64,000 bases of DNA, taken from positions 8,683-72,682 of the forward strand of contig JAYUQP010000022.1 in NCBI GenBank assembly GCA_043757265.1. The letters run 5' to 3'. Positions 36,304 through 54,628 of this stretch are shown in pieces. The notes under the pieces are model-generated. The model did not search any database. It saw only the letters and a list, made by a program, of their open reading frames with translations, and was not told the DNA's origin. How positions within the stretch are numbered: position 1 is the stretch's first letter; every line of letters starts with the position of its first letter. Made by a program: the position numbers and the translations under genes. Source of the stretch: Bdellovibrionales bacterium. GTDB lineage: Bacteria > Bdellovibrionota > Bdellovibrionia > Bdellovibrionales > JAGQZY01.

Positions 36304-38265
36304 ATGCGAGTTTTGTTGTTCTTAGCTTTTACGGTTTCGGCAGGATCCGCGTTCGCAGATGTTTTACAAGGAATCACGGACCAAATCCAAGACGAGTGGG
36401 AAAACTCAACCCTCAAGGCTCACCCCACTCTAAAAACCGGCTGGAATGTGGGCAGTCTATCTTCTCTTACCGGCCAGATTGGCTATACGTTTTCTGTTTC
36501 GCCCGCCTATGTTCAAGATCGCCATCAACGCGTCGACGCCTATGCAATCAAGCTGGGCGCTCATATTGGCGATGCTCTCGGAGTCGGAAGATCGGCTGAG
36601 GCTCAAATTTCCTTTTCGCGGTTGTTCAATCGAAAAAACCAAGCACTGTTCGCCGCTCCCGTGTCCCCTCGCAGTTTTCCATTCACCGCCGAGACGGCTT
36701 TGCAAAGCCTCGAGCGCGGCTCGGCCGCCCGCCTCGAATTAGCAACCGACGGGCATATTGGCGCAAGCTTTTCTCACATCGCAAACACCGGTCTCGGTGT
36801 GTTCCCCGCACAGTTCAGCGCGGCCGTTCGCCGGGGCACGCGTTACATCATCGATGTTTATCGCTTGGATCAGTACCGCGTGCGTCTTCGCATGGTCGCC
36901 ACCCGCAACATGGGTACGCTCGGCGCAAAAACCAGCGTGACGCCTTTGACTTCGCTCAATTTCGGTTCGGGTTTTGTCGACACTATTTTAAATCAACTTT
37001 TTCGCTGCGACCTCATCTCGATCGAAGGCGAAAAAACAGCCACCAATAAACTTCCGGTGGACAGCATGATGGTGGACTATGTGCTTTATCTAGATGCCCC
37101 ACTTGGCGCCGACAGTTATAATCAATTTTTTGCCCAAATTTTGAATATGGATGTGGTTAATCACCTCCGACTTTTTCAAACACCCGAACAATTTCACAAT
37201 TCGGTTTGGAACTATGCGCAGGTTATCAACAATGCTTACGAGAAGGAAAAACTCGTAGCGGCACCACAGTATCGAATTGTACAGAGGGAATTTATCGGTC
37301 GGACGCTCACAGATTTTCGTAAAATTTCGGTGGGCTCTGGATGCTTTAAACTTTGGGATGTGGACCGCGAAGTGTATCATGGAACATCCGGTGTCCGTTC
37401 GGTGAACGATAATAATCAAATCGAAGATTATTTTTACCTGCGAACTCAGCAATTTCAGGAATTTAATTTTCTCTTTGGACTCTTCGACGAGGAGCATGCC
37501 CTCGAGGTGAACACTCTGTTTCGTGCTCAGCGGCTCGACGAAAAAAATCCCCTCTCGCTCAAACCAGTGGCGCTCTCAGATCTTGTACTGACTCGCTCGT
37601 TCAAGGATAAGAAGTTTTTAGGAAAAGGCACGCTGATCAACGAAATTCGCACGTACCGGAAAGACCTTGAATATCAGTATCCGCAGTTTTTTTCCAACAT
37701 CGACTGGACACAGTACACAAATACAAAACAGTTGGCCTATTCCAAAATCGAAATGATTTTTGACGCCCGCACGGTGACGTTGCTGCGCCAGCAAAACTTT
37801 TCCGAAGATCAGCTGAAACGACTTTTACAAAATTACATCACTCGTTACCCATATAAGAATCATCTTTCCACAACGGATGGCGGCACACACGATGATTCAA
37901 AAACCGGCTTTGAACGTTTTAAAAAAGACACAGCCGTTATTGCTCGTCGCCTCACCCTGATATTTACGCCAGGGACCACAGTTGAAGTGGCAGTAAAGGC
38001 ATTTAGTTCCCTGCGGAAGAATGCGTTGTTTCAAGATGTGGGCGCAGGCTTCGTTCTGACCTTGCTTCCGCAGAATCAAGTTCGAGATCTTGTAGAAGCG
38101 ACATTAACGATTGGTGCGAAAGACACACCCACAATCGAAATTGTAAGCCACTCGGCTGGCATGTCCCACCTCTACAAACAGGTGGAACATATCCTCAACA
38201 CCATCAACGACAGAAGCTTTGATCTACGCCTGCACAAAGAGATCGGCCCCGTTCAAGATCAATAA
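36304..38265 (+). CDS. secreted hypothetical protein
   Basis: 653 aa with signal peptide MRVLLFLAFTVSAGSAFA/D. No motif recognised. Confidence 0.5.
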   Translation: MRVLLFLAFTVSAGSAFADVLQGITDQIQDEWENSTLKAHPTLKTGWNVGSLSSLTGQIGYTFSVSPAYVQDRHQRVDAYAIKLGAHIGDALGVGRSAEAQISFSRLFNRKNQALFAAPVSPRSFPFTAETALQSLERGSAARLELATDGHIGASFSHIANTGLGVFPAQFSAAVRRGTRYIIDVYRLDQYRVRLRMVATRNMGTLGAKTSVTPLTSLNFGSGFVDTILNQLFRCDLISIEGEKTATNKLPVDSMMVDYVLYLDAPLGADSYNQFFAQILNMDVVNHLRLFQTPEQFHNSVWNYAQVINNAYEKEKLVAAPQYRIVQREFIGRTLTDFRKISVGSGCFKLWDVDREVYHGTSGVRSVNDNNQIEDYFYLRTQQFQEFNFLFGLFDEEHALEVNTLFRAQRLDEKNPLSLKPVALSDLVLTRSFKDKKFLGKGTLINEIRTYRKDLEYQYPQFFSNIDWTQYTNTKQLAYSKIEMIFDARTVTLLRQQNFSEDQLKRLLQNYITRYPYKNHLSTTDGGTHDDSKTGFERFKKDTAVIARRLTLIFTPGTTVEVAVKAFSSLRKNALFQDVGAGFVLTLLPQNQVRDLVEATLTIGAKDTPTIEIVSHSAGMSHLYKQVEHILNTINDRSFDLRLHKEIGPVQDQ

Positions 38266-38429: not shown

Positions 38430-38912
38430 TTACCGGCCGATTGTGACCGGTTCGTCTAAGGCTGCTCCACCCGATGCAGGTGCAGTCGTTGTTGTGGTTC
38501 CGCCGTTTTCGCGTTCACACTGTCTTTGACCAGCGGCTTGACCGATGGCTCCGCCAATCATGCCGCCAAAAAGTAATAAAAAGAGAGGTGGTGGTACGGC
38601 GTGGGCGCGCGGAATAAAGATCGCTTCCAAGGCAGCCGATTTTTTCCCACCGGCTCTGTAAGCCATCTGTGTCTTGTCGTACACAGACTCAAGAGTGTCG
38701 GTGTTTTTAAAGATCACATCTTTGCCGTTCAACTTAAAATGAGTGCTACCAACTCTTTCGACGGTGAGGGTTTCGCCTTTGTAAACAAGCTCGGTCATTT
38801 TATTGTTGATACTGGTGATTGTAAAATCCTTCAGACCCATGGCTTGAATCGGCGCTGCCGACGCCACCGTTTGGCTTAAAAAAATCATCGTTACTAAAAT
38901 TGCCTTAATCAT
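38430..38912 (-). CDS. small exported protein with a C-terminal TM segment, hypothetical
   Basis: Signal peptide MIKAILVTMIFLSQTVASA/A. The C-terminal 'PPPLFLLLFGGMIGGAIGQAAG' is hydrophobic and is followed by a Thr-rich tail. Confidence 0.45.
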   Translation of the reverse strand: MIKAILVTMIFLSQTVASAAPIQAMGLKDFTITSINNKMTELVYKGETLTVERVGSTHFKLNGKDVIFKNTDTLESVYDKTQMAYRAGGKKSAALEAIFIPRAHAVPPPLFLLLFGGMIGGAIGQAAGQRQCERENGGTTTTTAPASGGAALDEPVTIGR

Positions 38913-38958: not shown

Positions 38959-40335
38959 TTAAATGTCAAAAAACGTATACGTTTTATTCGCAATCAACTC
39001 GTGAATTTGCCCATCAAACGGTGTCGCAAGCGGCGTCGATACGCCATTCTGTAACTGAAAAAGATAGCCATCTTCTGTCAGCCCTAGTGTTACGCTACCA
39101 GATTTATAAATGCGTTTAAAGGCCTGGTCATACTGAAGGCTTGAAGTTTTCATGTAGGGGTTCTTCTTGGCGTCGCAACCGAACTCGACGATAGACCCGT
39201 TATCCATCTGCATATAGCCCACGAGGCTCAATTTGTCGTACCCATTCGGGTAAATGATCGAAGTCGGAGTGCCCGAAGTGATGCTTTGTTCTACTTTTGT
39301 TCCGCTGCCGTACGGATCGCAAACAAACCGCACCTTATCCAGGGTGACTTTCGCCGACCATAAACCACCGTAGTGAATGCCAACAAGCTTAGCTTTTTCC
39401 TCGGGAGTTTGGTTATTGTACTCAACAGCATCGGCTCCAGCCGGTTGGTTTAACTGCCCTTCGTCTTTGGTAAAAACGTAGGTCGCAGGAAGAGTTTTAT
39501 CATCTGGAAAGAGCACATAATAATCACGACGAATCGCGATCTGTCCAAGATGCGGCGAAGAACCCTGCCTGGTGATTTTCGGAGTGGCTTGATCGAAGAC
39601 TAATTTATGAAATCCTAGGTCTTTATTCAAAACCAAAAAGTCTGGCGAAAAACTAATGCTCACTGGAAATTCAAAAGCCTCAAATGCATACACCAACGCG
39701 GAAGCTTTTGAGTAGGCCTTCATCGCTGGATGCACGTTTTGCGAGTATCGCGCGATCTGTGCGTAGGTTTCCACCGTTACGGCATATGAACCCGAGTCAG
39801 TAATGCGCGTGTCACACGCCCCTTGGATTCCTTTTCGAGGACCGTTCGTACACGTAGTGTGCGGAAATCCATCGATGTGTCGCGCCTCGTGCATATAAAC
39901 GCTTGCACTATCTAATGCCGAAAACGCATCCGACAGCATCAGCGGACACACATACATAGTCTTACTACCAAAGGTCGGCATTACAAAAGCACCGGCGCCT
40001 TTAGGGCAGTTCGCCTGGATATTGAACTTGTTAATTCTACCGGTAAAATAGGTCCACCAGTTTGTGGCAAATTTTCCGGAGAACATTTGATCTTTGCTCA
40101 CTGGCATTGATGCGTCGAATTTTGTATCGCGCATAAACATAATTCCAGCCATCAAGCGTGAAATGTCTGTATTGTCATAGCAATATTCTTTACCCGCTAA
40201 ATTTTGAAACTGGGTAAATTTTTTGGCAATCTCGCTCATATCAGCTGCAGATATGCACTCGGCTGCTTGAACACTTGCTGTTAATATTTGAACACTAAAG
40301 AATAGTCCGAATAGGACGCGTTTTGAAAAATCCAT
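38959..40335 (-). CDS. secreted protein with HExxH motif (putative zinc metalloprotease)
   Basis: Signal peptide ...FFSVQILTASVQA/A. 'SVYMHEARHIDGFPH' gives HExxH plus a downstream His. The RBS is AGAGGGGGA. Confidence 0.45.
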   Translation of the reverse strand: MDFSKRVLFGLFFSVQILTASVQAAECISAADMSEIAKKFTQFQNLAGKEYCYDNTDISRLMAGIMFMRDTKFDASMPVSKDQMFSGKFATNWWTYFTGRINKFNIQANCPKGAGAFVMPTFGSKTMYVCPLMLSDAFSALDSASVYMHEARHIDGFPHTTCTNGPRKGIQGACDTRITDSGSYAVTVETYAQIARYSQNVHPAMKAYSKASALVYAFEAFEFPVSISFSPDFLVLNKDLGFHKLVFDQATPKITRQGSSPHLGQIAIRRDYYVLFPDDKTLPATYVFTKDEGQLNQPAGADAVEYNNQTPEEKAKLVGIHYGGLWSAKVTLDKVRFVCDPYGSGTKVEQSITSGTPTSIIYPNGYDKLSLVGYMQMDNGSIVEFGCDAKKNPYMKTSSLQYDQAFKRIYKSGSVTLGLTEDGYLFQLQNGVSTPLATPFDGQIHELIANKTYTFFDI

Positions 40336-40450: not shown

Positions 40451-41140
40451 TCAGAGTTCTGATTGCAATTCGGACTGCTTACGCTGCGCGTAGTTTTTCA
40501 CTGTCATGTCGTCTTGTCGATTGATAATTTTGCGAAGCTCATCAATTCGCAAGCTCAACGGACGATCGCTTTCGGCAATGGCATCAATGGCGATGATGGC
40601 TTTAGCGCGCTCTTGATTATTTTGTAATTCTTGAATCGAATGTGGTTCTGCAGGCTCGCCATTCACCGGTCGCGAGGCCACTTCGCTCAAGCTACCAAAT
40701 GTTGCGTCTCCGCCGAGCGATAGCAAGTAGGTCGCAAGAATCCTTTCGTTATGGGACGCCGAAGAATTTGTTACTGCTCTTTTCAAAAACTCAATCTGTG
40801 GCGCCGTAAAAACCTTTGCTGCCTGACGAAGCTCAGCCTCCTTTAAATTAACATCAAGATGGATTGAACTCATCTGCTTGATCTCTTCGCGAAACCACCC
40901 ATTAAATTTTGCACCCACCCCGGCATCATTCAAATTTGCAGGGCTCCGATCTAAATTCGACTTTTGCTGTATTTGTGCTGACTCGTTTTCTTCAGACTCA
41001 TTTGTTTTAAAGTAGTCTGAGGTTTCGACGATAACTTCGCCGACTGTCTTCTTCTTATCGATCACGAACCGATTAAAGGATGTTGCCGCCACAACGATCA
41101 ACAAAACCACCGCAAAATAAAGCAAAAGACGCTTCATCAT
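40451..41140 (-). CDS. membrane-anchored hypothetical protein
   Basis: 229 aa with N-terminal TM MMKRLLLYFAVVLLIVVAATSF. It starts 2 nt after the rhodanese gene stop. Confidence 0.45.
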   Translation of the reverse strand: MMKRLLLYFAVVLLIVVAATSFNRFVIDKKKTVGEVIVETSDYFKTNESEENESAQIQQKSNLDRSPANLNDAGVGAKFNGWFREEIKQMSSIHLDVNLKEAELRQAAKVFTAPQIEFLKRAVTNSSASHNERILATYLLSLGGDATFGSLSEVASRPVNGEPAEPHSIQELQNNQERAKAIIAIDAIAESDRPLSLRIDELRKIINRQDDMTVKNYAQRKQSELQSEL

Positions 41141-41950: not shown

Positions 41951-42463
41951 CTATTTGCCAATTGGAACGTACCCAAACTCAAATGAAAATTCTGGCGCTT
42001 GCTCTACCGGAGTCAACCGTAGGTGCAAAACTTTGCCTTTAATCGCCTCGGTTAAACATAGTGCCGACTCCACGTCATACAGGTGGTCTTTGTGGCCCTG
42101 CTTCAAGTCTCTAATAGATGCCACGGCCCTCTTCTTGGCCTCCGCTTCGCTGTCTGCCACCACAAAAACATTGCGGTGGATTTCGGTGAATTCTTGCGGC
42201 GAATAGGCGCCTAAATTTACAAAGTATAATTTTTTGGAATCAGCTGCAGGGGCTTCGACGAATTCAAGCTTGTGACCGTCGGCGTACTCGAGCGCCCCCC
42301 AGCAGTCCAAGTGCAGACTCTCAGGTGTTCCCCACCACGTTTTTTTTAACTCGCCGTAAGTTTCCTCAATCCGCGTTGCGACGACAAAGCGCATATCGTG
42401 AAGCTCGATCAAAGATTGGGTAGTCTTCCCACCGATATAAATCACAAATAGTTTGTTGTTCAC
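41951..42463 (-). CDS. DUF1543-like protein
   Basis: 'LFVIYIGGKTTQSLIELHDMRFVVA...LHLDCWG', with a second half 'LYFVNLGAY...EIHRNVFVVA', resembles the duplicated DUF1543 motif (GG...ElHD.rF). Confidence 0.5.
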   Translation of the reverse strand: MNNKLFVIYIGGKTTQSLIELHDMRFVVATRIEETYGELKKTWWGTPESLHLDCWGALEYADGHKLEFVEAPAADSKKLYFVNLGAYSPQEFTEIHRNVFVVADSEAEAKKRAVASIRDLKQGHKDHLYDVESALCLTEAIKGKVLHLRLTPVEQAPEFSFEFGYVPIGK

Positions 42464-43266: not shown

Positions 43267-43583
43267 AGAGTGCGCTGTACTTTAAAGTTGGTTTTCGTCT
43301 GGTTTCAATTGAGAGATACTTTTGTTAACCACAGAGCCAAACGGCGAAAGTACTATATAACCCATCGCGTAGAATTGCCGAGCTAAACACACAGAATTTT
43401 CGAGCTGAAAAGCCAATTCCCCTCAGTTTCTTCAGATTGTAGTCAATTCTAAAAACATTAAAATATTTTCAATTCTCCGCATAGTTTTGAATCATTTGCA
43501 GAGGGTTGGTAACGCATTAACTTATCTAAAATAAGTCAATGTTCGGGGTTTGATTACGGCTTTTTTTATGTTGGGGAATTATC

Positions 43584-46500
43584 ATGAAAGTTCAAAAAAT
43601 ACGCTTTGCAGCCTGTTCGCAATTTCTTTTCTTATTTTTGTTTGCCCAATCATTTGCCGATATCAATGAATCGTCGGCGCTAAAAACCTACAAAGAACGG
43701 CTGCGAGTGATAGAAAACAGCCTTAATCCTGCCGAAATGTACGAGGCGACGAAAGATCTTGTACCAACCAACGAATCTTTCGAAATCCTAAAACAGACCC
43801 TGGCACATCTTCCCGACCGACACAATAACGGCGACTTCGAGAAAGCTTTCAATCCAGAAAATACGATTATGATTCTTCTGGAGGCTTTTGAAAAACATGC
43901 CTCTTCCGTAGACATCGAACTCCTTGCCGATCTCAATCGATGGGCAGATCTTTCCCACCTCGAAGAAGTTGTGCAGCAAAAGATAATTCAAACTGCTATT
44001 TACCTCAAAAATATAAGCTCGGCACGCAAGCTTGTTTCGATGAATACCCTATACCCCTCAAGCGGAATACGCCCTTCCCCGACCACACTTCGCCTTGCAG
44101 GACCAAGTCCACAAAAAATCAGTGATGCACACCAATCCGCATTGATTGAAATTGAGCGCTTTTACCGGAGCATGAAAGATCGCGTTGTTGGACAAGATGA
44201 TATTCTTAAATCCTTCCGCTCCCTTTACATCAGTGACCTTATTAGCGGAGGTCGCCGTATTGAGCCAGAAGTTTTTTATCTGATGGGTCTTCCTGGGAAT
44301 GGCAAAGACACCATCGCCGAGGCCTATATTGATGCTCTTTGGAATATGCGAGACGCTCACGTTTCGCATATGTATCGCATCAACATTCGCACTAAAGAAG
44401 AAGCGTGGAGTTTATTTGGTTCTAGCAAGGGATACGTCGGCTCAGCTGACCTCCCCAGTTTCTTAAAGTTCTTGGTTGAGCACTCGGGCGGTAAATACAT
44501 ATTGGGCAGCGAGGCGACACCTCAAGGGACCCGAACTATTGTCGAAAAAAATACGACATGGAAGGCTGACGAATTCACTTTAAGAGCCCCGTCCCATAAG
44601 GCTGTTATTTTTGTAAACGAAGCTCACAATATCCCTCGTGCAGTAAAGGACAATATTCTCAAACAAGCCATCGAACGTGGTATTTTTCCAATCACCAATC
44701 CAGGCTCCACTCCCAACGCTGTTTCGCAAATTCAACTGCCCGTAACTTTTATCTTCGCATCCAACGAGGGAATTGATCTGCTCGAACCGCGCGAAAAAAA
44801 CGGAGCGCGCCTTGGTAAACCTTTATCCTTTGATCGTTTGCTTGAAAATTATGAACGCGTCTTTAAAGATAAAGAACGCCTGAAACAAGCAATCATGAAG
44901 GGCAATGGCGAGCTCAATAATCCAAATCATCCGGATCAACCAGGAACCTCAGAAGAGTTTCTCAATCGTTTCCCTGACCATCGCGTTCACCTGTTACGTC
45001 CACTCAGCCCAGAAAACCTCCAGCGGATCGCTGAAATATTAATTAAAGCTGAAAGTAACAAACTTAAAAATGCGAGCGGACGCCTTGGACAATACACCGT
45101 CACATTGTCAGAGGAAGCCATTCGCTTTATCACTCAATATGATTCTATTCCTTCTGAAAACTCTCGTCCGATCAAGGCTCGACTGAAAAGTTTTGTCTTT
45201 GATGAAATTTTTCAGGCCATTGAAAGCAAAGAAATTAAACCATCTTCGCTTGTCCAAGATATTTACGTCGACATTCAACTCAATCCGGATGGCTCACGCT
45301 CCGCTCATTTTAAAATCACTGATTCAAATCCAACCTCTTATGAGTTTTGGAGCGTTATCGATCAAACCCTCAAAGATGTTCCCCAGGAACCCTTGTCACG
45401 AGACCGCATAGAGGCAATTTTAAAAATGCGTCAACAAATTCTCGATAATGTGTTCGGTGTTGAACACATCGTCGATAAGCTAATTGAGGCCGCGATTGTT
45501 TCCGAAAGCGAATCACGCAATGCCGGTGAGTCAAAAAGGCCTGCCACGGTGATGGCTTTTTTAGGTAAAACTTCCACTGGAAAAACAGAGACCGCAAAAC
45601 AGTACGTAAAAGCTCGCTATGGAACTCACGAACGGCTTGAAACAATCGACTTCAATGGGATCCGCGATCTCCAAGCGATGAACGCAAGAATTCTTGGCAC
45701 CTTTGATGCGCGAAATAATCCTATCGCCTCAGATTTCATGAAGGCCTACGACCGTGCTCCCGATGGAAATATTGCATTTATCTTTGATGAGGCCGCAAAT
45801 TCACCAAGGGAGTTGTTAAAAGGTCTGTATGAGATTTTGCGAGAACCGGTTGTTTCTGGTTTTTCTGACGGAAAGCCACGTCCCATGAAAAATGTAACTA
45901 TTATTTTGACGGGCAATGCCGGTGAACAAATCTACAACTTGATTCCAAAAGATCTTCCAACCGATGTTTACGAACGCGCCATGCGCGAGGTCTTTCGAAT
46001 TTTCCTGAATAACGCCGACCTCCAGCAACGAATTTTAGCAGAGACTTTCCCAGACGCGTTCATTGCGCGTCTGGGAAATAATGTTTATCATTTCGGCCCC
46101 TTGAAAGACTCAGGCAAGCGGCAAGTGGCGCAGTTGAAACTCCTCAAGGGACTTGAAGGACTAAAGCCTAAAAACAGTGAGCGTGGCTGGAATATGGTCT
46201 TTGCTAAAGAGTCCGATATTTTAGACCTCTTCGACCTTATCGAAAAAGAAGGGTTTAACAGTGCCCACCAGGGCGCCTCGATCGACTCCTTTGTTCGGCT
46301 TTCCATCATTGATAAAATCAAAGCCAAACTGCTGAGTGAAAATGTCGCTAATGGACAAGATGTCATGATTGAAGTTGCGAAAGAATCTATCGTACGGTCC
46401 GACCGCGACGTTTCAAATTCCTTTAGACACATGAAAATTATCACCGAAGCTGGTCAAGAATTTATCGTCGAAATCCCAATTTCGAAAAGAACGACTTCGA

Positions 46501-47624
46501 TGGCGGTTAGCGACGTGGATCGAATTTTAACGGCCTATCACGAAGTGGGCCATGAGATTGTTTCAGAAGTTTATTTTGGTGATCGCGTACGCCCGAAATA
46601 TATTTCGATCATCGAAGGCGTGACTCTTATTGGAGCTTCCTTTGTCCACTACGCAGGAATCCGCGTCGGGCAACCCCTTTCCGCCGGTCCGCGCACAAAA
46701 CAGGTTGTTCTTCGCGAAGCTGCTGTTTTGTATGGTGGCTATGTGGCCCAGCAGCTGGTTACGATAGGAGGTCGTCATGACTCTGGGAAAAAGAATGATT
46801 TCCATCGTGCCACACGACTTATTCAAAATGCCATTCTTCGCGATGGACTCTCGGACGAGTGGGGGAAAAGGTCCATTCCAGACAACGTAAAAACTGGCGA
46901 CTACATTGATCAAGAACTTTCTCCCGAGGAAAAAGCCAAACTCAATCACATCACAGATCGTTGGATGAGCTACGCTGAGCAATTTGCACGCGAAGCTTTA
47001 TATGTGAACATGGATCGACTTTTTGTGGTTCTCGGCAAGCGTCTTTCGGAAAAAGGTTTCCTAGATCAAAAAGCAATTTCTGAAATTCACGATCGATTTT
47101 CTCCGGTCACTGAAAGAACAGTAGACTTTGCCGGCAAATTAGATGAAGTGCGCAAAGTCATCGCACTTATTGAGCAGAGCGGGGCTAACGTAGGATCGGT
47201 TCTTGAAAACAAATTCCGCACAAGAGCCTACAGCGTTGATAACGCCCACGAGGCCTTTAACCTAGTAATGAAAGCGTCGAGGAAAGCAGGTTTATTTGAA
47301 AAAGTCCGTACGTACTTTTTTCCTCCCTGGGATAAATTGACGGAGCTTCAAAAAACTGTTGCGGCCTCTTACCTTGGAAACAAAATATCTGATTTGAGTC
47401 GTGATGCACGCATCGCCGGCGAATACTGGATGCCAGAATCTGTTGCCAACATTGATGAAATCATCAAAGAAGAGCGCCTTCGCGAAACTCGTCCCGTCAC
47501 TGATTTAGCTCGCTTTGAAATCTTAAAACAAGATTTAATGGTTTCGGAAGAGACCATCGAAGACATTCAAAGATCAGTCACCCAAAAATCAACAGCGGCG
47601 CTTTCTTGTAAAAACATTTTCTGA
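43584..47624 (+). CDS. fusion protein: export-type N-terminus, two Clp/Hsp100 D2-type AAA+ modules and a C-terminal FtsH-type M41 zinc peptidase
   Basis: 1346 aa. Module 1 has 'GLPGNGKD' and 'IFVNEAH' (degenerate Walker A/B). Module 2 has 'GKTSTGKT' and 'FIFDEA' (canonical). The C-terminus 'TAYHEVGHEIV...ISIIEGVTLIG...LYGGYVAQQLV...KKNDFHRATRLIQNAI' parallels FtsH M41. Confidence 0.8.
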   Translation: MKVQKIRFAACSQFLFLFLFAQSFADINESSALKTYKERLRVIENSLNPAEMYEATKDLVPTNESFEILKQTLAHLPDRHNNGDFEKAFNPENTIMILLEAFEKHASSVDIELLADLNRWADLSHLEEVVQQKIIQTAIYLKNISSARKLVSMNTLYPSSGIRPSPTTLRLAGPSPQKISDAHQSALIEIERFYRSMKDRVVGQDDILKSFRSLYISDLISGGRRIEPEVFYLMGLPGNGKDTIAEAYIDALWNMRDAHVSHMYRINIRTKEEAWSLFGSSKGYVGSADLPSFLKFLVEHSGGKYILGSEATPQGTRTIVEKNTTWKADEFTLRAPSHKAVIFVNEAHNIPRAVKDNILKQAIERGIFPITNPGSTPNAVSQIQLPVTFIFASNEGIDLLEPREKNGARLGKPLSFDRLLENYERVFKDKERLKQAIMKGNGELNNPNHPDQPGTSEEFLNRFPDHRVHLLRPLSPENLQRIAEILIKAESNKLKNASGRLGQYTVTLSEEAIRFITQYDSIPSENSRPIKARLKSFVFDEIFQAIESKEIKPSSLVQDIYVDIQLNPDGSRSAHFKITDSNPTSYEFWSVIDQTLKDVPQEPLSRDRIEAILKMRQQILDNVFGVEHIVDKLIEAAIVSESESRNAGESKRPATVMAFLGKTSTGKTETAKQYVKARYGTHERLETIDFNGIRDLQAMNARILGTFDARNNPIASDFMKAYDRAPDGNIAFIFDEAANSPRELLKGLYEILREPVVSGFSDGKPRPMKNVTIILTGNAGEQIYNLIPKDLPTDVYERAMREVFRIFLNNADLQQRILAETFPDAFIARLGNNVYHFGPLKDSGKRQVAQLKLLKGLEGLKPKNSERGWNMVFAKESDILDLFDLIEKEGFNSAHQGASIDSFVRLSIIDKIKAKLLSENVANGQDVMIEVAKESIVRSDRDVSNSFRHMKIITEAGQEFIVEIPISKRTTSMAVSDVDRILTAYHEVGHEIVSEVYFGDRVRPKYISIIEGVTLIGASFVHYAGIRVGQPLSAGPRTKQVVLREAAVLYGGYVAQQLVTIGGRHDSGKKNDFHRATRLIQNAILRDGLSDEWGKRSIPDNVKTGDYIDQELSPEEKAKLNHITDRWMSYAEQFAREALYVNMDRLFVVLGKRLSEKGFLDQKAISEIHDRFSPVTERTVDFAGKLDEVRKVIALIEQSGANVGSVLENKFRTRAYSVDNAHEAFNLVMKASRKAGLFEKVRTYFFPPWDKLTELQKTVAASYLGNKISDLSRDARIAGEYWMPESVANIDEIIKEERLRETRPVTDLARFEILKQDLMVSEETIEDIQRSVTQKSTAALSCKNIF

Positions 47625-47761: not shown

Positions 47762-49003
47762 TTAAGGTACGTAAGCTATGGTGTTTCTCGTGGTGTAACC
47801 TAAATCAGTGCATGCCGTGACATAAATTGAAGCCATAAAGCGATTTGTCGTCGGATTCCAACATCTGTACAAGGGTTTAGTCGCGAACAAAGTGGCAACG
47901 GTGGATGCGTATCCGATCAAGCTTGCCGTTTCCGTCGTTGAATTACAGCCCGTTGCAATCCGAGTATTTTTAGTTGTATTTATTTGACAGTTAAAAAGAG
48001 CCGTCGAATTTTGCGGTAGCGCCTGGTTGTAAGCTCGAAAGCTTATAGTCTCTGCTACATAAAGGACAGGAGTCGCCGCTCCGTCAGGCAAAAACAGATA
48101 AAATTTTGAAGCCGGGTTTTGAAACTTTCGGATGTTTCTTTGACCTGTGGGAGCAGCGCCGGCTATTTGGTAAGGCTTAGGTCCGTACATTTGATAGACG
48201 TATCGTTTGTCCTCAGAACTTAATGCTCCTCTCACTGTAACCGCTGTTCCGATAATATCATCGTATTGGCCACTGGGAGTAAATATCGTTTGCAAGCCCG
48301 GTTTAGAGCCACTGTTTTTAGTGTAATGCATAATTGAATAATAATCGTAGGGGCCCGACCGAGTTATTTCTATAGCGCTATAAATGTCGAATGCCGCAAT
48401 CGACTCGGTTCGAACATTGTTGAATTCAACTCGAATATAGCTATTGCGGTCTGGTCTTGCATGTTCGTGAATAAGGCCAAGTAAATGGCCGAATTCGTGT
48501 TGGATGATGCCACCATTAGGTGCCGTAAAACAACGGGCCGGATCTAAATTTATGTACGCAACGTTTGTTGTCGTTTTAAACCCATAGGTCGAACTGCAAC
48601 GACCGGTTTCACGAAAAATGTATACGATCGGTGTTGGTTCAGAGCTCTGCCATCCTGCTGACACGATACATTTTAAATTGGCCCACTTAGCCCATGCATT
48701 ACAGGCGGCAATAATCGTCGTTCGCTCAGCTGAAGTAAACTCACTGTGAATCCACATTCGTACTTCGCCGTTAGGCCACCTTGGTGCTGTGGCGAGTTTT
48801 GCTTTACCATCGAGGCCAGTTTGGTTTTCATCAAAGATGTACATATCGTCGCCGACAAGAGTCGTTCCTATTTGTTGCTCTGCAAGGCCCATCGAACCAG
48901 CAATCGACGAAGTCGTCGCATCTCTCCCACAATTGTTAAAGAGCGGAAAAAAAACGAAGCTGAAACCAGCCATCAGCATGACAAGTATGTTTTTCTTATG
49001 CAT
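47762..49003 (-). CDS. astacin-family (M12A) zinc metalloprotease lipoprotein with a C-terminal repeat domain
   Basis: Lipobox-like FPLFNN/CGRD. 'HEFGHLLGLIHEHARPDRNSYI' is the astacin HExxHxxGxxHE signature and 'YYSIMHY' is the Met-turn. The C-terminal ~150 aa has three 'YR.(W/Y)N...' repeats. Confidence 0.85.
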   Translation of the reverse strand: MHKKNILVMLMAGFSFVFFPLFNNCGRDATTSSIAGSMGLAEQQIGTTLVGDDMYIFDENQTGLDGKAKLATAPRWPNGEVRMWIHSEFTSAERTTIIAACNAWAKWANLKCIVSAGWQSSEPTPIVYIFRETGRCSSTYGFKTTTNVAYINLDPARCFTAPNGGIIQHEFGHLLGLIHEHARPDRNSYIRVEFNNVRTESIAAFDIYSAIEITRSGPYDYYSIMHYTKNSGSKPGLQTIFTPSGQYDDIIGTAVTVRGALSSEDKRYVYQMYGPKPYQIAGAAPTGQRNIRKFQNPASKFYLFLPDGAATPVLYVAETISFRAYNQALPQNSTALFNCQINTTKNTRIATGCNSTTETASLIGYASTVATLFATKPLYRCWNPTTNRFMASIYVTACTDLGYTTRNTIAYVP

Positions 49004-49266: not shown

Positions 49267-50658
49267 TCAGACAAGCAAGACTTTCAATTTAGAACCTTTG
49301 ATTTTAGAAGAACCTAATTTCTTAAGTGCTTTTTCTACCTCAGAGGATTTGATCGCAACATAGCTAAACCGTTCATGGACTTCAATCTTACCCACGTCGG
49401 ATCCCTCTAAGGCGTCAGGCTCTGACGTCAGTGTCCCCAAAATATCACCAGGGCGCAGTTTGTGGCTTTTACCACCTGAAATATGCAGCGTGCGATTCAC
49501 TGATTTTTGCATTTCGGAAGAAAACGCCACATCGCCTTGCACTTCAAGCATGGGACGGATCATTTTGACGCCAGTTGTTTCTTCGATGTCAGCAACCATT
49601 GGGATCTCGTAGTCCGTGGCGATGGAGACTGCCGTGCCTTTTCGACCTGCGCGTCCCGTGCGACCAATGCGATGCACATAGATCTCGGTGCTTGATGGCA
49701 TATCCATATTGATCACAAGCTCCAACGTATCGATATCCAGTCCGCGAGCTGCCACGTCGGTGGCCACAAGAACTCGTAAACTTCCATTTCGAAACAGCGT
49801 GGTTACTTTATCGCGATCAAACTGCTCAAGATCCCCATGTAGAACTCCGCAGCTCACCTTGTGCTTAGCCAATTGCTGTCCGATTTGCGCCACCGTTGTT
49901 TTCATCCGGCAGAAGATCAAAGTGCACTGCGAGGGGTGGTTTTTGAGAATTTGCAAAAGTGTTTGTTCTTTTTGCGGATTTTCGCTTGCATATAAATACT
50001 GTTCGATCTGCGGAGAGGTTTTTAGATTTGTCTCAATCGTAATTCGTTCGGCGTTTTTTTGATAGCGGTCCGATAAAACCTCCACACCTTCAGGAAAGGT
50101 CGCCGAAAAAAATACGGTTTGTCGATCCACAGGTAGCAGTTCGATAATGGCCGTGAGCTCGTCGGTGAAGCCTTCTTCCAACATGCGATCGGCTTCGTCC
50201 AATACGAATATTTTTAGCCGATCCACCTGAGCATTTCGCTCTTTGAGGTGCTCTAGAGTTCGACCAGGAGTTCCTACAATCAACTGCGCACCTCGCTCCA
50301 GAGCTTGAGTTTGTGGAGGGTAAGGTTGTCCACCCACGAGGGCCACGGTTTGCAGCCCCGGAAAGGCTTTTGAAAACTTCCGGCACTCCCGCAACACCTG
50401 ATCGCTCAGCTCTCGCGTGGGGCAAAGAATTAGCGCCTGTGCGTGCATCTGGTTCACTTGGATTTTTTCAAGAATTGGAATTATAAATGCGGCAGTTTTT
50501 CCGCTTCCAGTTTGCGACTGCCCCACAAGATCTTTTCCCGCAAGCAGCAGCGGCAAACTTGCAGCCTGAATGGGTGTCATTTCCGAAAAGCCCATTTCGG
50601 CAATCAGTTTTAGAAGGGCTGGTGACAGCGGGAGCGAATTAAAGTTTTTAAAGCTCAT
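49267..50658 (-). CDS. dbpA: ATP-dependent DEAD-box RNA helicase DbpA
   Basis: Q-motif 'MTPIQAASLP', 'SQTGSGKT', 'VLDEADRML' and 'SAT' are all present. The C-terminal DbpA RNA-binding domain is 'GGKSHKLRPGDILGTL...IGKIEVHERFSYVAI'. Confidence 0.9.
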   Translation of the reverse strand: MSFKNFNSLPLSPALLKLIAEMGFSEMTPIQAASLPLLLAGKDLVGQSQTGSGKTAAFIIPILEKIQVNQMHAQALILCPTRELSDQVLRECRKFSKAFPGLQTVALVGGQPYPPQTQALERGAQLIVGTPGRTLEHLKERNAQVDRLKIFVLDEADRMLEEGFTDELTAIIELLPVDRQTVFFSATFPEGVEVLSDRYQKNAERITIETNLKTSPQIEQYLYASENPQKEQTLLQILKNHPSQCTLIFCRMKTTVAQIGQQLAKHKVSCGVLHGDLEQFDRDKVTTLFRNGSLRVLVATDVAARGLDIDTLELVINMDMPSSTEIYVHRIGRTGRAGRKGTAVSIATDYEIPMVADIEETTGVKMIRPMLEVQGDVAFSSEMQKSVNRTLHISGGKSHKLRPGDILGTLTSEPDALEGSDVGKIEVHERFSYVAIKSSEVEKALKKLGSSKIKGSKLKVLLV

Positions 50659-52957: not shown

Positions 52958-54628
52958 CTACGGCTGCACACATCGCCGCGCATTGGTCAGATATTGCATG
53001 GGTTGATCCAGAACTCGGTTATTGCAGTACACCTGATTGTTTGGCGCATCGGTCGATTCACGATGAAGGTAAATCAGCATTCGATCAGGACTGGTGTTGT
53101 TGAGCTCGCCAGTATTATTGTCGAAAATATTAAAATTTCCCTGCCCCGGAGTTAAAACGATCTGCTTAAAACCCCGCACAGGAGTGTTTCGACCCATGTT
53201 GTTTTTAATAACCCAATAGTTGCCTTTGATATTGACCCACGACTCGGCAGAGTTTACTTGCGAGATACCACGCCCATCAAACTGATTGCCTTCGATAAGA
53301 CCTCGCGACGTAAACTCTTTGATGTCGATGTGCTCAGCTGTGATTCCCGGTCCAAATTGATTATTTAAAATCTGATTGTAATCACTGGCGTCTTCGATGC
53401 CTTTGTTGAGAGAAGATCCGATGTAAACTCCCTCGCCAATACCTTCCGCACCCCGTTCAAGTCCGGTGTTGTAAAACCGGCTATTTTCGATCACGTTATG
53501 GTGACTCCACAGCATAAGATGGAGAGCTTCGTGTCCCACATCGTGGACCACGAGGCGTTCGAAGCGGCTGAAGTTTGTCCCCTCGGCCATGAGACCTTTC
53601 ATCCCTAGCGAAAAATCAATTTGTGAAACACGAACGTACTGACTATTTTTTAAAGTTAAAATTCTTTTTCCAGAAGTCGCACCGGGACCTACGATTTTTG
53701 CAGCGCCATCACCACACAAGGTGATCATTTTTGTACTTGTGCCGCGCAGATTTTCGAACACCACCGAATCTAGAAGATAAGTTCCTGCAGCAAGGACAAA
53801 TAAATCTCCAGCCACTGCACGTGTTGGGAGCGCCCGTAAATCTGCAACATTCGAGATGACAATTTTTCGATCATGCGGGTAACGATCGCAACTTGAGGAC
53901 GTGGGCGGAGGCGGAGGAGTTATCGGCGGTAGAGGCTGCTGCGGGAGGACCGTACAGGCTGCAAAAGAATGGGCCGTATTCCCACCGAGAACTCCGTTTG
54001 TGCAAGTGCGATTGCTGCTAACACAAGTAGCGCCAAAACTGACTGTGCCACTGGCATAGGCTACAACTGAGGAATTGTGCGCAACCGTTTGCCCATTGAA
54101 TGTACAGGCAAGGGGTGCATCTACGGAGCAGCTAGATCTGGTATAAGTGCCACTGAGAATTCCATCATTGCAACGTCTTTGCTCTTGCATGCAGACCTGC
54201 CCGTAGACCACTCGGCTCGAGAGATACGCACCCACAGTTGCATCATGTGCAATTGTTCTTGTGTTGAATAGACAGGAATTTTTACTTTCTGGAAGGGTGC
54301 TGCAGCTTGCGAAGCCAAAAGAGCCAGAGAGAACTCCACCAGAGCAGGTGCGAGTTTCTTTTTGCGCACAGCTAGCGGAAACGCTTACCTGGTACGCCTC
54401 GACCGATGCACCGTCTGCCAACACCGACCCATTGAATAAGCATTGCAGTACGGTTGGCTCCTTGATTACCGGCTCGGTAATGACAGGCATGCATGTTTCA
54501 CCCTCGCAGCTGTTCTGGCTCTCTGAAGAACTTGTGAAAGTCTCATAGCCTTGACCGCAGTTTTGGAAGGGTAAAAAACAAACCAGAACTAAGATGATGA
54601 TAAAGCTTTTTTTTCTGATTCTACGCAT
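52958..54628 (-). CDS. lipoprotein with three Cys-rich ~50-aa repeats, a Pro-rich linker and a right-handed parallel beta-helix domain
   Basis: FQNC lipobox (LPFQN/CGQG). Repeats follow 'C.FNG..(A/V).(D/H).(A/S).V.AY......C....R.C..G.LSG....SC'. The linker is 'PLPPITPPPPPT'. PbH1-like turns are 'NSRFYNTG', 'NNQFGPGITAEHIDI' and 'GNQFDGRG'. Confidence 0.65.
   Translation of the reverse strand: MRRIRKKSFIIILVLVCFLPFQNCGQGYETFTSSSESQNSCEGETCMPVITEPVIKEPTVLQCLFNGSVLADGASVEAYQVSVSASCAQKETRTCSGGVLSGSFGFASCSTLPESKNSCLFNTRTIAHDATVGAYLSSRVVYGQVCMQEQRRCNDGILSGTYTRSSCSVDAPLACTFNGQTVAHNSSVVAYASGTVSFGATCVSSNRTCTNGVLGGNTAHSFAACTVLPQQPLPPITPPPPPTSSSCDRYPHDRKIVISNVADLRALPTRAVAGDLFVLAAGTYLLDSVVFENLRGTSTKMITLCGDGAAKIVGPGATSGKRILTLKNSQYVRVSQIDFSLGMKGLMAEGTNFSRFERLVVHDVGHEALHLMLWSHHNVIENSRFYNTGLERGAEGIGEGVYIGSSLNKGIEDASDYNQILNNQFGPGITAEHIDIKEFTSRGLIEGNQFDGRGISQVNSAESWVNIKGNYWVIKNNMGRNTPVRGFKQIVLTPGQGNFNIFDNNTGELNNTSPDRMLIYLHRESTDAPNNQVYCNNRVLDQPMQYLTNARRCVQP

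Follow-up and report, generated by a model that had tools for sequence, protein, structure and literature searches.

A conserved single-chain protein of Bdellovibrio-type bacteria with an export-type leader, two Clp D2-type AAA+ modules and an FtsH-type M41 protease

The stretch of DNA examined here, termed the window, comprises 64,000 nucleotides of a Bdellovibrionales genome (assembly GCA_043757265.1, contig JAYUQP010000022.1, positions 8,683 to 72,682), and carries on its forward strand a gene for a protein of 1346 residues. In a single chain this protein joins an export-type leader, two AAA+ modules of the Clp/Hsp100 D2 type and an FtsH-type M41 metallopeptidase, and it ends in a flexible tail bearing an invariant cysteine. 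We hold with high confidence, on sequence grounds, that this architecture is real and conserved, and it is undescribed as far as the searched literature goes. The reading that we favour, at roughly even odds, is that the protein is a Sec-exported, self-contained AAA+ metalloprotease that has a post-export route in common with other enzymes bearing the same tail, and that it acts where ATP is available, probably ATP derived from prey.

Architecture and conservation of the family

The gene is one uninterrupted frame of 1346 codons at 43584-47624 (+), as read directly from the sequence and as the first-pass annotation had it; only 10 in-frame codons lie 5′ of the ATG at 43584. Conservation was judged on an alignment (A1) of 71 full-length members that share 27-87% of residues with the query, which is the basis of every count given out of 71. 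Two further sets were checked, comprising 72 further full-length representatives and 27 distant (second-tier) relatives. The folded parts of the protein and the motifs that mark them are as follows (pLDDT is the predicted local distance difference test score).

43659..44048 (+), residues 26-155: N-domain, an all-alpha HEAT/ARM-like repeat of eight helices (AlphaFold, 37-sequence alignment, mean pLDDT 85.3)
44154..45368 (+), residues 191-595: AAA+ module 1, Clp/Hsp100 D2-type large and small domain (profile of 71 sequences against the PDB)
44286..44309 (+), residues 235-242: module 1 Walker A, G-L-P-G-N-G-K-D, with Asp for Thr/Ser (G235, G240, K241 and D242 in 71/71)
44418..44444 (+), residues 279-287: module 1 pore loop, G-S-x-x-G-Y-V-G-S (G279, S280 and G283 invariant; Y284 in 68/71, Phe in 3)
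44604..44621 (+), residues 341-346: module 1 Walker B, V-I-F-V-N-E, with Asn for Asp and the catalytic Glu kept (N345 in 69/71, E346 in 70/71)
45369..46478 (+), residues 596-965: AAA+ module 2, Clp/Hsp100 D2-type large and small domain (ClpB D2 4lj8 residues 24-324, E=8e-28)
45564..45587 (+), residues 661-668: module 2 Walker A, G-K-T-S-T-G-K-T (G661, G666 and K667 in 71/71; T668 in 67/71, Ser in 4)
45774..45791 (+), residues 731-736: module 2 Walker B, A-F-I-F-D-E (D735 in 69/71, E736 in 71/71)
46479..47093 (+), residues 966-1170: Peptidase_M41 domain (Pfam PF01434, residues 974-1168, 52.6 bits against a cutoff of 29.9)
46539-46553 (+): HExxH motif, H986-E987-x-x-H990, invariant in the alignment
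46797-46799 (+): third zinc ligand, D1072, invariant in the alignment
47094..47513 (+), residues 1171-1310: extra C-terminal helical domain packed on M41 (6-7 helices, pLDDT ~90 or higher)

The protease is the part recognized most readily. Peptidase_M41 is the only Pfam family over threshold in the window protein, and the FtsH_fam model of NCBIfam matches the protease part only (966-1163). The AlphaFold model of residues 945-1346 has a mean pLDDT of 90.7 and a predicted template modelling (TM) score of 0.86, with the M41 part above a pLDDT of 90, and a Foldseek search with this model retrieves the protease domains of YME1, FtsH and AFG3L2, at a TM-score of 0.80 normalized to the FtsH protease domain 2di4. 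Pfam, invariance and fold match thus agree on the C-terminal FtsH-type peptidase, with its HExxH and downstream Asp, that had been proposed at first reading. The helical domain that follows matches no Pfam or NCBIfam model, and its conservation is low (0.19).

Conservation along the chain peaks in module 2, with a column conservation of 0.59 in the large and 0.50 in the small domain. Its profile finds only Clp/Hsp100 D2 domains in the PDB, and NCBIfam places residues 598-936 on the D2 domains of ClpB, ClpV and ClpA (E=5e-18). It has a GK[TS] Walker A, a DE Walker B, a sensor 1 Asn (N778) and an Arg finger (R829), the last two in 71/71. The description 'canonical' given to it earlier holds for these four elements and fails for two others: the pore-loop position lacks a conserved aromatic residue, and the sensor-2 position is occupied by Ser, within an invariant QGASID block, in place of Arg.

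Module 1 is related to module 2 (hhalign probability 98.8% over 311 columns), and its profile matches only the D2 domains of ClpB, Hsp104, ClpC and Skd3 in the PDB (E=3e-18), in two blocks, one of which covers the P-loop and pore loop and the other the Arg finger and small domain. The pore loop aligns to 'GYVGYEE' of ClpB D2. Set against the standard site, module 1 departs from both the GK[TS] Walker A and the hhhhDE Walker B, and it had been called a degenerate pseudo-ATPase for that reason. We revise this view, since the odd P-loop and Walker B are themselves near-invariant, and the catalytic Glu, the GYVG loop, sensor 1 (N394, 71/71), the Arg finger (R462, 70/71) and sensor 2 (R528, 70/71) are all kept; a regular-expression search also finds the GK-D P-loop in 55/72 of the further full-length representatives. 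Module 1 fits a conserved non-canonical nucleotide site, not a decayed one, and the two modules appear complementary rather than 'dead plus live'. Across both modules and down to 27% identity, the Walker A Lys is kept in 71/71, the Walker B Glu in 70-71/71, sensor 1 in 71/71 and the Arg fingers in 70-71/71. Such strong purifying selection on ATPase residues implies nucleotide use.

The motifs quoted in the first-pass annotation are all present where it had put them. Of the Pfam matches that it had predicted, Peptidase_M41 came out above threshold, whereas AAA_2 (653-785, 18.4 bits) and ClpB_D2-small (474-555, 16.5 bits) fall below it in the window copy; both are among the precomputed matches of many other family members. 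A Torsin match at 612-679 is weak, at 19.7 bits against a cutoff of 27. A ClpP-docking loop ([LIV]-G-[FL]) is absent from the protein, in which the sole such tripeptide is an M-G-L inside the P-loop strand of module 1.

The N-domain, which is followed by a low-confidence linker to residue 190 in the AlphaFold model, is the least conserved folded part of the protein. Its model has no Foldseek match in the PDB at E<=0.001, and protein atlas searches with its sequence and with residues 1170-1346 returned nothing usable. VIA-align gives best Z scores of 9.4-8.1 to HEAT/ARM solenoids, a range that is common for helical repeats, and the structural neighbours in the Atlas are HEAT_2 clusters (TM-score 0.58). 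As only generic HEAT/ARM/TPR solenoids are matched, we claim no specific relative for this domain.

The same architecture recurs widely. About 80 full-length homologues (1250-1430 amino acids) came from a word-indexed search, their source names, where present, being only Bdellovibrionales or Bdellovibrionota, and an exhaustive profile search from module 2 to the C-terminus found 254 cluster representatives at E<=1e-30, which puts the family at 250 sequence clusters or more. Where names exist, then, the family is known so far only from Bdellovibrio-type bacteria. The gene is present in 32/401 genomes of the phylum to which the window belongs, and its spread is patchy: some families carry it in 10/27, 9/20 and 3/3 genomes, others in 2/53 (family f2) and 1/100. 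This distribution argues against a core function in predation. Among the matches listed, a back-translated HExxH pattern run over genome contigs gave only ordinary FtsH genes, from many phyla, and no family member. The full-text literature that was searched (PMC12622784 included; subscription journals lay outside its scope) describes neither this architecture, nor a GK-D Walker A in Clp-type modules, nor a C-terminal Cys tag in Bdellovibrio-type bacteria.

The host genome is a metagenome-assembled genome (MAG) from sediment, of 2.98 Mb in 133 contigs. Such fragmentation, and the sub-threshold AAA_2 and D2-small matches in the window copy, could suggest that an assembly or annotation error has joined a Clp-like and an FtsH-like gene, as the first-pass annotation had allowed. 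The probability of this is negligible. More than 140 full-length collinear homologues come from independent assemblies or clusters, the 32 genomes carry the gene without internal stops, and profile matches run unbroken from the module 2 ATPase into M41. In addition, two sediment runs, possibly the source, each cover the stretch in a single contig with no differences, indels or joints, and most of it is also found, with zero differences, in short contigs from another two sediment runs of that study. The one-chain combination of export-type leader, two Clp D2-type modules and M41 is thus confirmed as that of a conserved family. The host also has an ordinary FtsH and an ordinary ClpB, and a whole-genome search found no second AAA-M41 copy.

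The more distant relatives, at E about 1e-50 to 1e-67 for those that came from the profile search, form a clade (P0083, P0084, P0245-P0283; for example, P0251 and P0257) that has two tandem D2-like modules and M41, a signal-like N-terminus, few cysteines and a C-terminal Cys tail. Most of them add an N-terminal PF00004-type AAA module and a longer N-region, giving three P-loops. They differ also in the GK-D P-loop and the HEAT-like N-domain, which are particular to the family of the window protein. In many of them the penultimate (middle) module pairs an N-E Walker B with an ordinary GK[TS], from which we conclude that the Asn came first and that the P-loop Asp is specific to the window protein's family.

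The export-type leader and the C-terminal cysteine tail

The protein begins with the following element.

43584..43658 (+), residues 1-25: signal-peptide-like N-terminus, with K2, K5 and R7 in the n-region, an uncharged core F8-A25, and S-F-A followed by D

By a home-made heuristic, a hydrophobic N-terminal core is present in 69/71 members, the n-region is net positive in 64/71, the segment after the core is neutral or acidic in 59/71, and a later transmembrane-like stretch occurs in only 1/71. Comparison of the N-termini places small-x-small cleavage-type sites after the core in most members. The features expected of a Sec substrate of signal peptidase I (positive n-region, h-region, small residues at -3 and -1) are thus found in the window protein and in 64-69/71 homologues, and a signal-like N-terminus also occurs in 60/72 of the further representatives and 25/27 of the distant relatives. 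The earlier remark that the leader is unlike the two-transmembrane anchor of FtsH is upheld by the conserved signal-like segment and the lack of a second transmembrane segment. We have moderate confidence, from these sequence features, that the leader is a Sec-type signal peptide and that the protein is exported.

Alternatively, the N-terminus could be an uncleaved anchor with the bulk of the protein facing the predator cytoplasm, making it a one-transmembrane analogue of FtsH for quality control of membrane or cytoplasmic proteins. Cytoplasmic ATP would explain the conserved ATPase motifs, the uncharged stretch F8-A25 is, at 18 residues, long for a signal-peptide core, and FtsH-type proteases are normally membrane-tethered. 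We consider this topology distinctly unlikely, as the charge bias around the core places the bulk outside by the positive-inside rule, cleavage-type sites are present in most members, a standard FtsH is already encoded in the genome, and the C-terminal tail described below is common to enzymes of typically exported kinds.

The tail of the window protein and the other open reading frames (ORFs) of the host genome that bear it are as follows.

47514..47621 (+), residues 1311-1346: disordered tail ending S-C-K-N-I-F (pLDDT ~50), with Cys1342 at 47607-47609
Tail-bearing ORFs L121-L129 of the host genome (G000): C15:201-1850 (-), C31:23311-24714 (-), C35:12685-14169 (+), C53:19915-20778 (+), C67:53508-54635 (-), C88:2-673 (+), C91:91753-92898 (+), C119:1491-2522 (+), C124:40792-41973 (-)

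Cys1342 is invariant (71/71) and follows a linker of variable length that is rich in Ser, Ala, Pro and Thr. In all 71 members it lies 4-15 residues from the C-terminus, most often with 4-7 residues after it, in the motif [S/T]-C-x-x-[L/I/F]-[L/F], and in 51/71 it is the sole Cys past residue 40. The last 20 residues likewise include a Cys in 67/72 further representatives and in 25/27 distant relatives.

About ten other ORFs of the host genome combine this tail with a signal-like N-terminus, and for most of these ORFs the Cys of the tail is the only one past residue 35. By Pfam they include 5′-nucleotidase/metallophosphoesterase-like, FAD oxidoreductase (DAO), trypsin-like, DUF7790 and Amidoligase_2 proteins, while four have no family. 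One of the ORFs without a Pfam match, L126 (C88:2-673, +), is cut off by the start of its 3.2-kb contig and has the best-scoring tail in the genome; its end, L-S-C-K-E-L-F, is identical to the last seven residues of P0002, an 87%-identical homologue of the window protein. The tagged genes are scattered over the genome, with no recurrent neighbour around the ten.

The tail was scored in three ways. A position-specific scoring matrix (PSSM) trained on the tails scores 10 C-terminal sites of the host genome at >=6, against 1.3 expected from internal Cys positions, and the motif C..[LIV]F occurs at 20 C-termini against 8.9 expected (P ~9e-4). The generic pattern of C-x-x-hydrophobic-hydrophobic gives no clear C-terminal enrichment among signal-like ORFs (19 against 14 expected), so the argument rests on the sharper pattern, the PSSM and conservation in orthologues. 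Here, the tail and the single Cys in the mature part are kept in 31/31 amidoligase homologues (38-77% identity), 8/9 DUF7790 proteins and 5/5 readable DAO orthologues, and in these three families each orthologue has a signal-like N-terminus or an open frame that extends upstream. The tail differs from the sortase-type CTERM signals (PEP-CTERM, GlyGly-CTERM, MYXO-CTERM, LPXTG), with no transmembrane-like window near the C-terminus, and no NCBIfam model, CTERM domains included, matches it. It differs also from a CaaX box, as the residues after the Cys number 4-15 and never 3, and the hydrophobic pair stands at +3/+4. The shared tail looks like an undescribed C-terminal tag, and it may mark exported enzymes that are routed together.

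A single invariant Cys on a flexible linker of variable length, next to a zinc protease, also calls to mind a cysteine switch, in which the tail would fold back and Cys1342 would cap the M41 zinc, keeping the protease latent until displaced; such latency is established in other zinc metalloproteases, as in the pro-domains of matrix metalloproteases. We regard this as very unlikely here. Enzymes other than zinc proteases (Amidoligase_2, FAD oxidoreductase, DUF7790) have this tail conserved as well, so it has a function independent of the M41 site, which speaks against latency as its main role; known M41 active sites are already sequestered in a hexameric chamber; and the monomer model gives the tail no confident placement. 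Docking of the tail (1311-1346) on the M41 and helical domains with zinc scored 0.22 against a mark of 0.32, a value that speaks neither for nor against binding.

Mechanism, place of action and genomic setting

Our proposal for how such a protein would work follows from the domain order. By analogy with FtsH and with ClpB and ClpA, six subunits would stack into three rings formed by module 1, module 2 and M41. The HEAT-like N-domain may pick substrates or adaptors, the GYVG pore loops of module 1 would grip the substrate polypeptide, and module 2, with its canonical Walker A and B but without an aromatic pore loop, would supply ATP hydrolysis, so that the unfolded chain is threaded into the M41 chamber. 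In module 1, the carboxylate that coordinates Mg appears to have been relocated, Walker B having exchanged D for N and Walker A having exchanged T for D. The protein would cross the inner membrane of the predator and act after export in a compartment that contains ATP, either the prey cytoplasm or a permeabilized (leaky) bdelloplast, with the Cys tail as the point at which a post-export step common to the tagged enzymes takes hold, be it covalent attachment, escort or hand-over.

The place of action is the part of this proposal that needs most argument. The periplasm has no ATP. Conservation of the ATPase residues implies nucleotide use, and the leader implies export into this ATP-free compartment; taken together, they favour action in an ATP-containing place after export. 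Amidoligase_2 is, we presume, a family of ATP-dependent enzymes, and if so, two users of ATP carry the leader and the tail. The amidoligase would then provide the best indirect support for an ATP-containing destination. Our confidence that the site of action lies in the prey or the bdelloplast is low. The first-pass annotation had raised envelope anchoring or delivery into prey as possibilities, to which the occurrence of the tail on other exported enzymes, the presumably ATP-dependent amidoligase among them, lends indirect support.

A different answer to the same problem is that the protein remains in the envelope of the predator, whether in the periplasm, on the outer membrane or on the surface, perhaps held by its Cys tail, as a protease-chaperone that turns over no ATP. 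Its AAA+ modules would then scaffold the oligomer or act as a holdase that needs no nucleotide, much as DegP operates in the periplasm without ATP. The signal-peptide features and lack of any further transmembrane segment suit this account, as does the ATP-free periplasm itself; the tail is common to typical periplasmic or secreted hydrolases (5′-nucleotidase-like and trypsin-like); and module 1 has a non-canonical P-loop and Walker B, while in module 2 both an aromatic pore loop and the Arg of sensor 2 are missing. It is nonetheless rather unlikely in our estimation. If nucleotide were neither bound nor hydrolysed, it would be hard to account for a Walker A Lys, Walker B Glu, sensor 1 and Arg finger that stay near-invariant in both modules down to 27% identity. 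Conservation is also highest in the canonical ATPase module, and a putatively ATP-dependent Amidoligase_2 has the same leader and tail.

Several points weigh against the exported, ATP-using protease that we favour. Its export topology is read from the heuristic described above. We know of no route from the ATP-free periplasm into prey for so large a protein, and that the sediment MAG belongs to a predator is presumed from its phylum and lineage. The gene is found in 0/26 genomes of genus g10 and, as noted, in few of family f2. The swaps of D for T and N for D in module 1 would inactivate a normal AAA+ site, and module 2 has neither an aromatic pore loop nor a sensor-2 Arg, so that a division of labour between them is conjecture. 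The monomer model leaves the tail disordered and gives no hint of a binding target. Finally, the paucity of Cys is partly inherited: the cytoplasmic ClpB of the host has 1 Cys in 837 residues and its FtsH 3 in 657, and Cys depletion was rejected as stand-alone proof of export on the grounds that both of these proteins are also Cys-poor.

A bolder and, in our judgement, doubtful version of the exported-protease reading is that the Bdellovibrionota have a class of Sec-exported effectors, otherwise poor in Cys, whose Cys tag serves for covalent hand-over to a route into prey, by a carrier disulfide that is reduced on arrival or by a lipid or thioester. The window protein would be the largest cargo of this class, running on prey ATP to dismantle prey proteins.

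If this version is borne out, the protein would be the first secreted AAA+ protease and its tail a new bacterial sorting signal. Should the protein be exported and depend on ATP, of which the periplasm has none, it would raise the question of where the exported enzymes of bacterial predators work and how they arrive. The shared Cys tail offers a handle that can be mutated, and with it candidate effectors that travel the same way could be listed from sequence only; the pairing of GK-D with N-E would be a natural experiment in how AAA+ sites coordinate Mg-ATP. Should the protein prove to be cytoplasmic or independent of ATP, it would still represent a new and widely conserved M41 domain architecture.

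The gene stands alone in the genome. Upstream of it lies the following spacer.

43267..43583 (+): AT-rich upstream spacer of 317 bp (GC content 0.35 in 43400-43699 against ~0.45 around)

A Shine-Dalgarno-like GGGGA can be read 9 nt 5′ of the ATG. A scan for consensus promoters and terminators gave counts at or under the shuffled expectation and no promoter above chance in the spacer. The total of terminator-like sites in the region is likewise not above chance; one of those in the scan is a perfect 14-bp inverted repeat with a 5-nt loop at 46046-46078 (+), which lies inside the ORF, where the Arg-finger part of module 2 is encoded.

The upstream neighbour is a 212-aa ORF with a signal-like N-terminus and no Pfam match, and an astacin gene (47762-49003) lies downstream of the protease gene in convergent orientation. 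Base composition, Pfam scan and coordinates agree with the first-pass annotation on the spacer and on both neighbours, which it had cited as context; they do not prove to be conserved partners. No conserved gene neighbours were found around the loci of 14 relatives, nor around the 87%-identical P0002, nor around P0037, so that the surroundings differ even in the closest of these. The flanking genes encode a DUF1543 protein (41951-42463, -) and a DbpA-type DEAD-box RNA helicase (49267-50658, -), neither of which is kept beside the gene in relatives. Signal-like N-termini are dense nearby, in ORFs at 36304-38265 (+), 38430-38912 (-), 38959-40335 (-), 40451-41140 (-) and 52958-54628 (-), none of which carries the Cys tail. 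The two of these that were scanned, of 653 aa and 458 aa (the latter with an H-E-A-R-H motif), match no Pfam family.

Comparison with known systems

The energy-dependent proteases FtsH, Lon, ClpXP/AP, HslUV and the proteasome are cytoplasmic or membrane-tethered, and each combines one unfoldase lineage with one protease. The family described here goes against this rule by putting two Clp D2-type rings on an FtsH protease in one chain. The first-pass annotation could not place this architecture in a characterized family, and the comparison bears this out: the protein has neither the two-transmembrane anchor and classic-clade AAA of FtsH nor the D1 and N-domain of class I Clp proteins.

With FtsH, YME1 and AFG3L2, the window protein shares an M41 domain of matching fold, with HExxH and a downstream Asp in the context 'G-K-x-N-D-x-x-R-A-T', and an AAA+ unfoldase fused in cis on the N-terminal side of the protease. 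It lacks two of the three defining features of FtsH, namely the classic-clade AAA and the two-transmembrane anchor. In FtsH, a classic-clade AAA (PF00004) precedes M41, whereas the window protein has no PF00004 match even at E<=1, and two HCLR-clade modules of the Clp D2 type stand in its place. In place of two transmembrane segments with a periplasmic loop there is one signal-like leader, with no later transmembrane-like window in 70/71 members by the heuristic. After M41, the window protein adds a helical domain of 140 residues and the Cys tail.

With ClpB/Hsp104 and the D2 of ClpA and ClpC, both modules align over the large and small domains. Of the Clp D2 features, the GYVG loop, sensor 1, Arg finger and 'ARP' sensor 2 are retained in module 1, and canonical Walker A and B, sensor 1 and Arg finger in module 2. 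Unlike class I Clp proteins, the window protein has no Clp_N, D1 or middle domain (there is no Clp_N or PF00004 Pfam match), and both of its rings are of D2 type. It differs further from Clp proteins in having no ClpP-docking loop, a protease that is fused rather than separate, GK-D and N-E in module 1, and a signal peptide-like leader.

Skd3 and the torsins are neighbours in concept. Skd3 (human CLPB) is a disaggregase of the mitochondrial intermembrane space, and its targeting sequence directs it away from the cytosol. Like the window protein it has a helical-repeat N-domain before a ClpB-D2-type module, and Skd3 chains are among the PDB matches of both window modules. Skd3 has ankyrin repeats, one module and no protease, whereas the window protein has a HEAT-like domain (a likeness at the level of fold class only), two modules and M41. 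Torsins are AAA+ proteins of the endoplasmic reticulum lumen, of a Clp-D2-like lineage and with a non-canonical Walker A (GK-N in torsinA), and to our knowledge no other well-known AAA+ proteins carry a signal sequence of the cleavable kind. Torsins have one module, no Arg finger and no protease, need activator partners and reside in a compartment that imports ATP, whereas the window protein has Arg fingers in both modules and carries its own protease.

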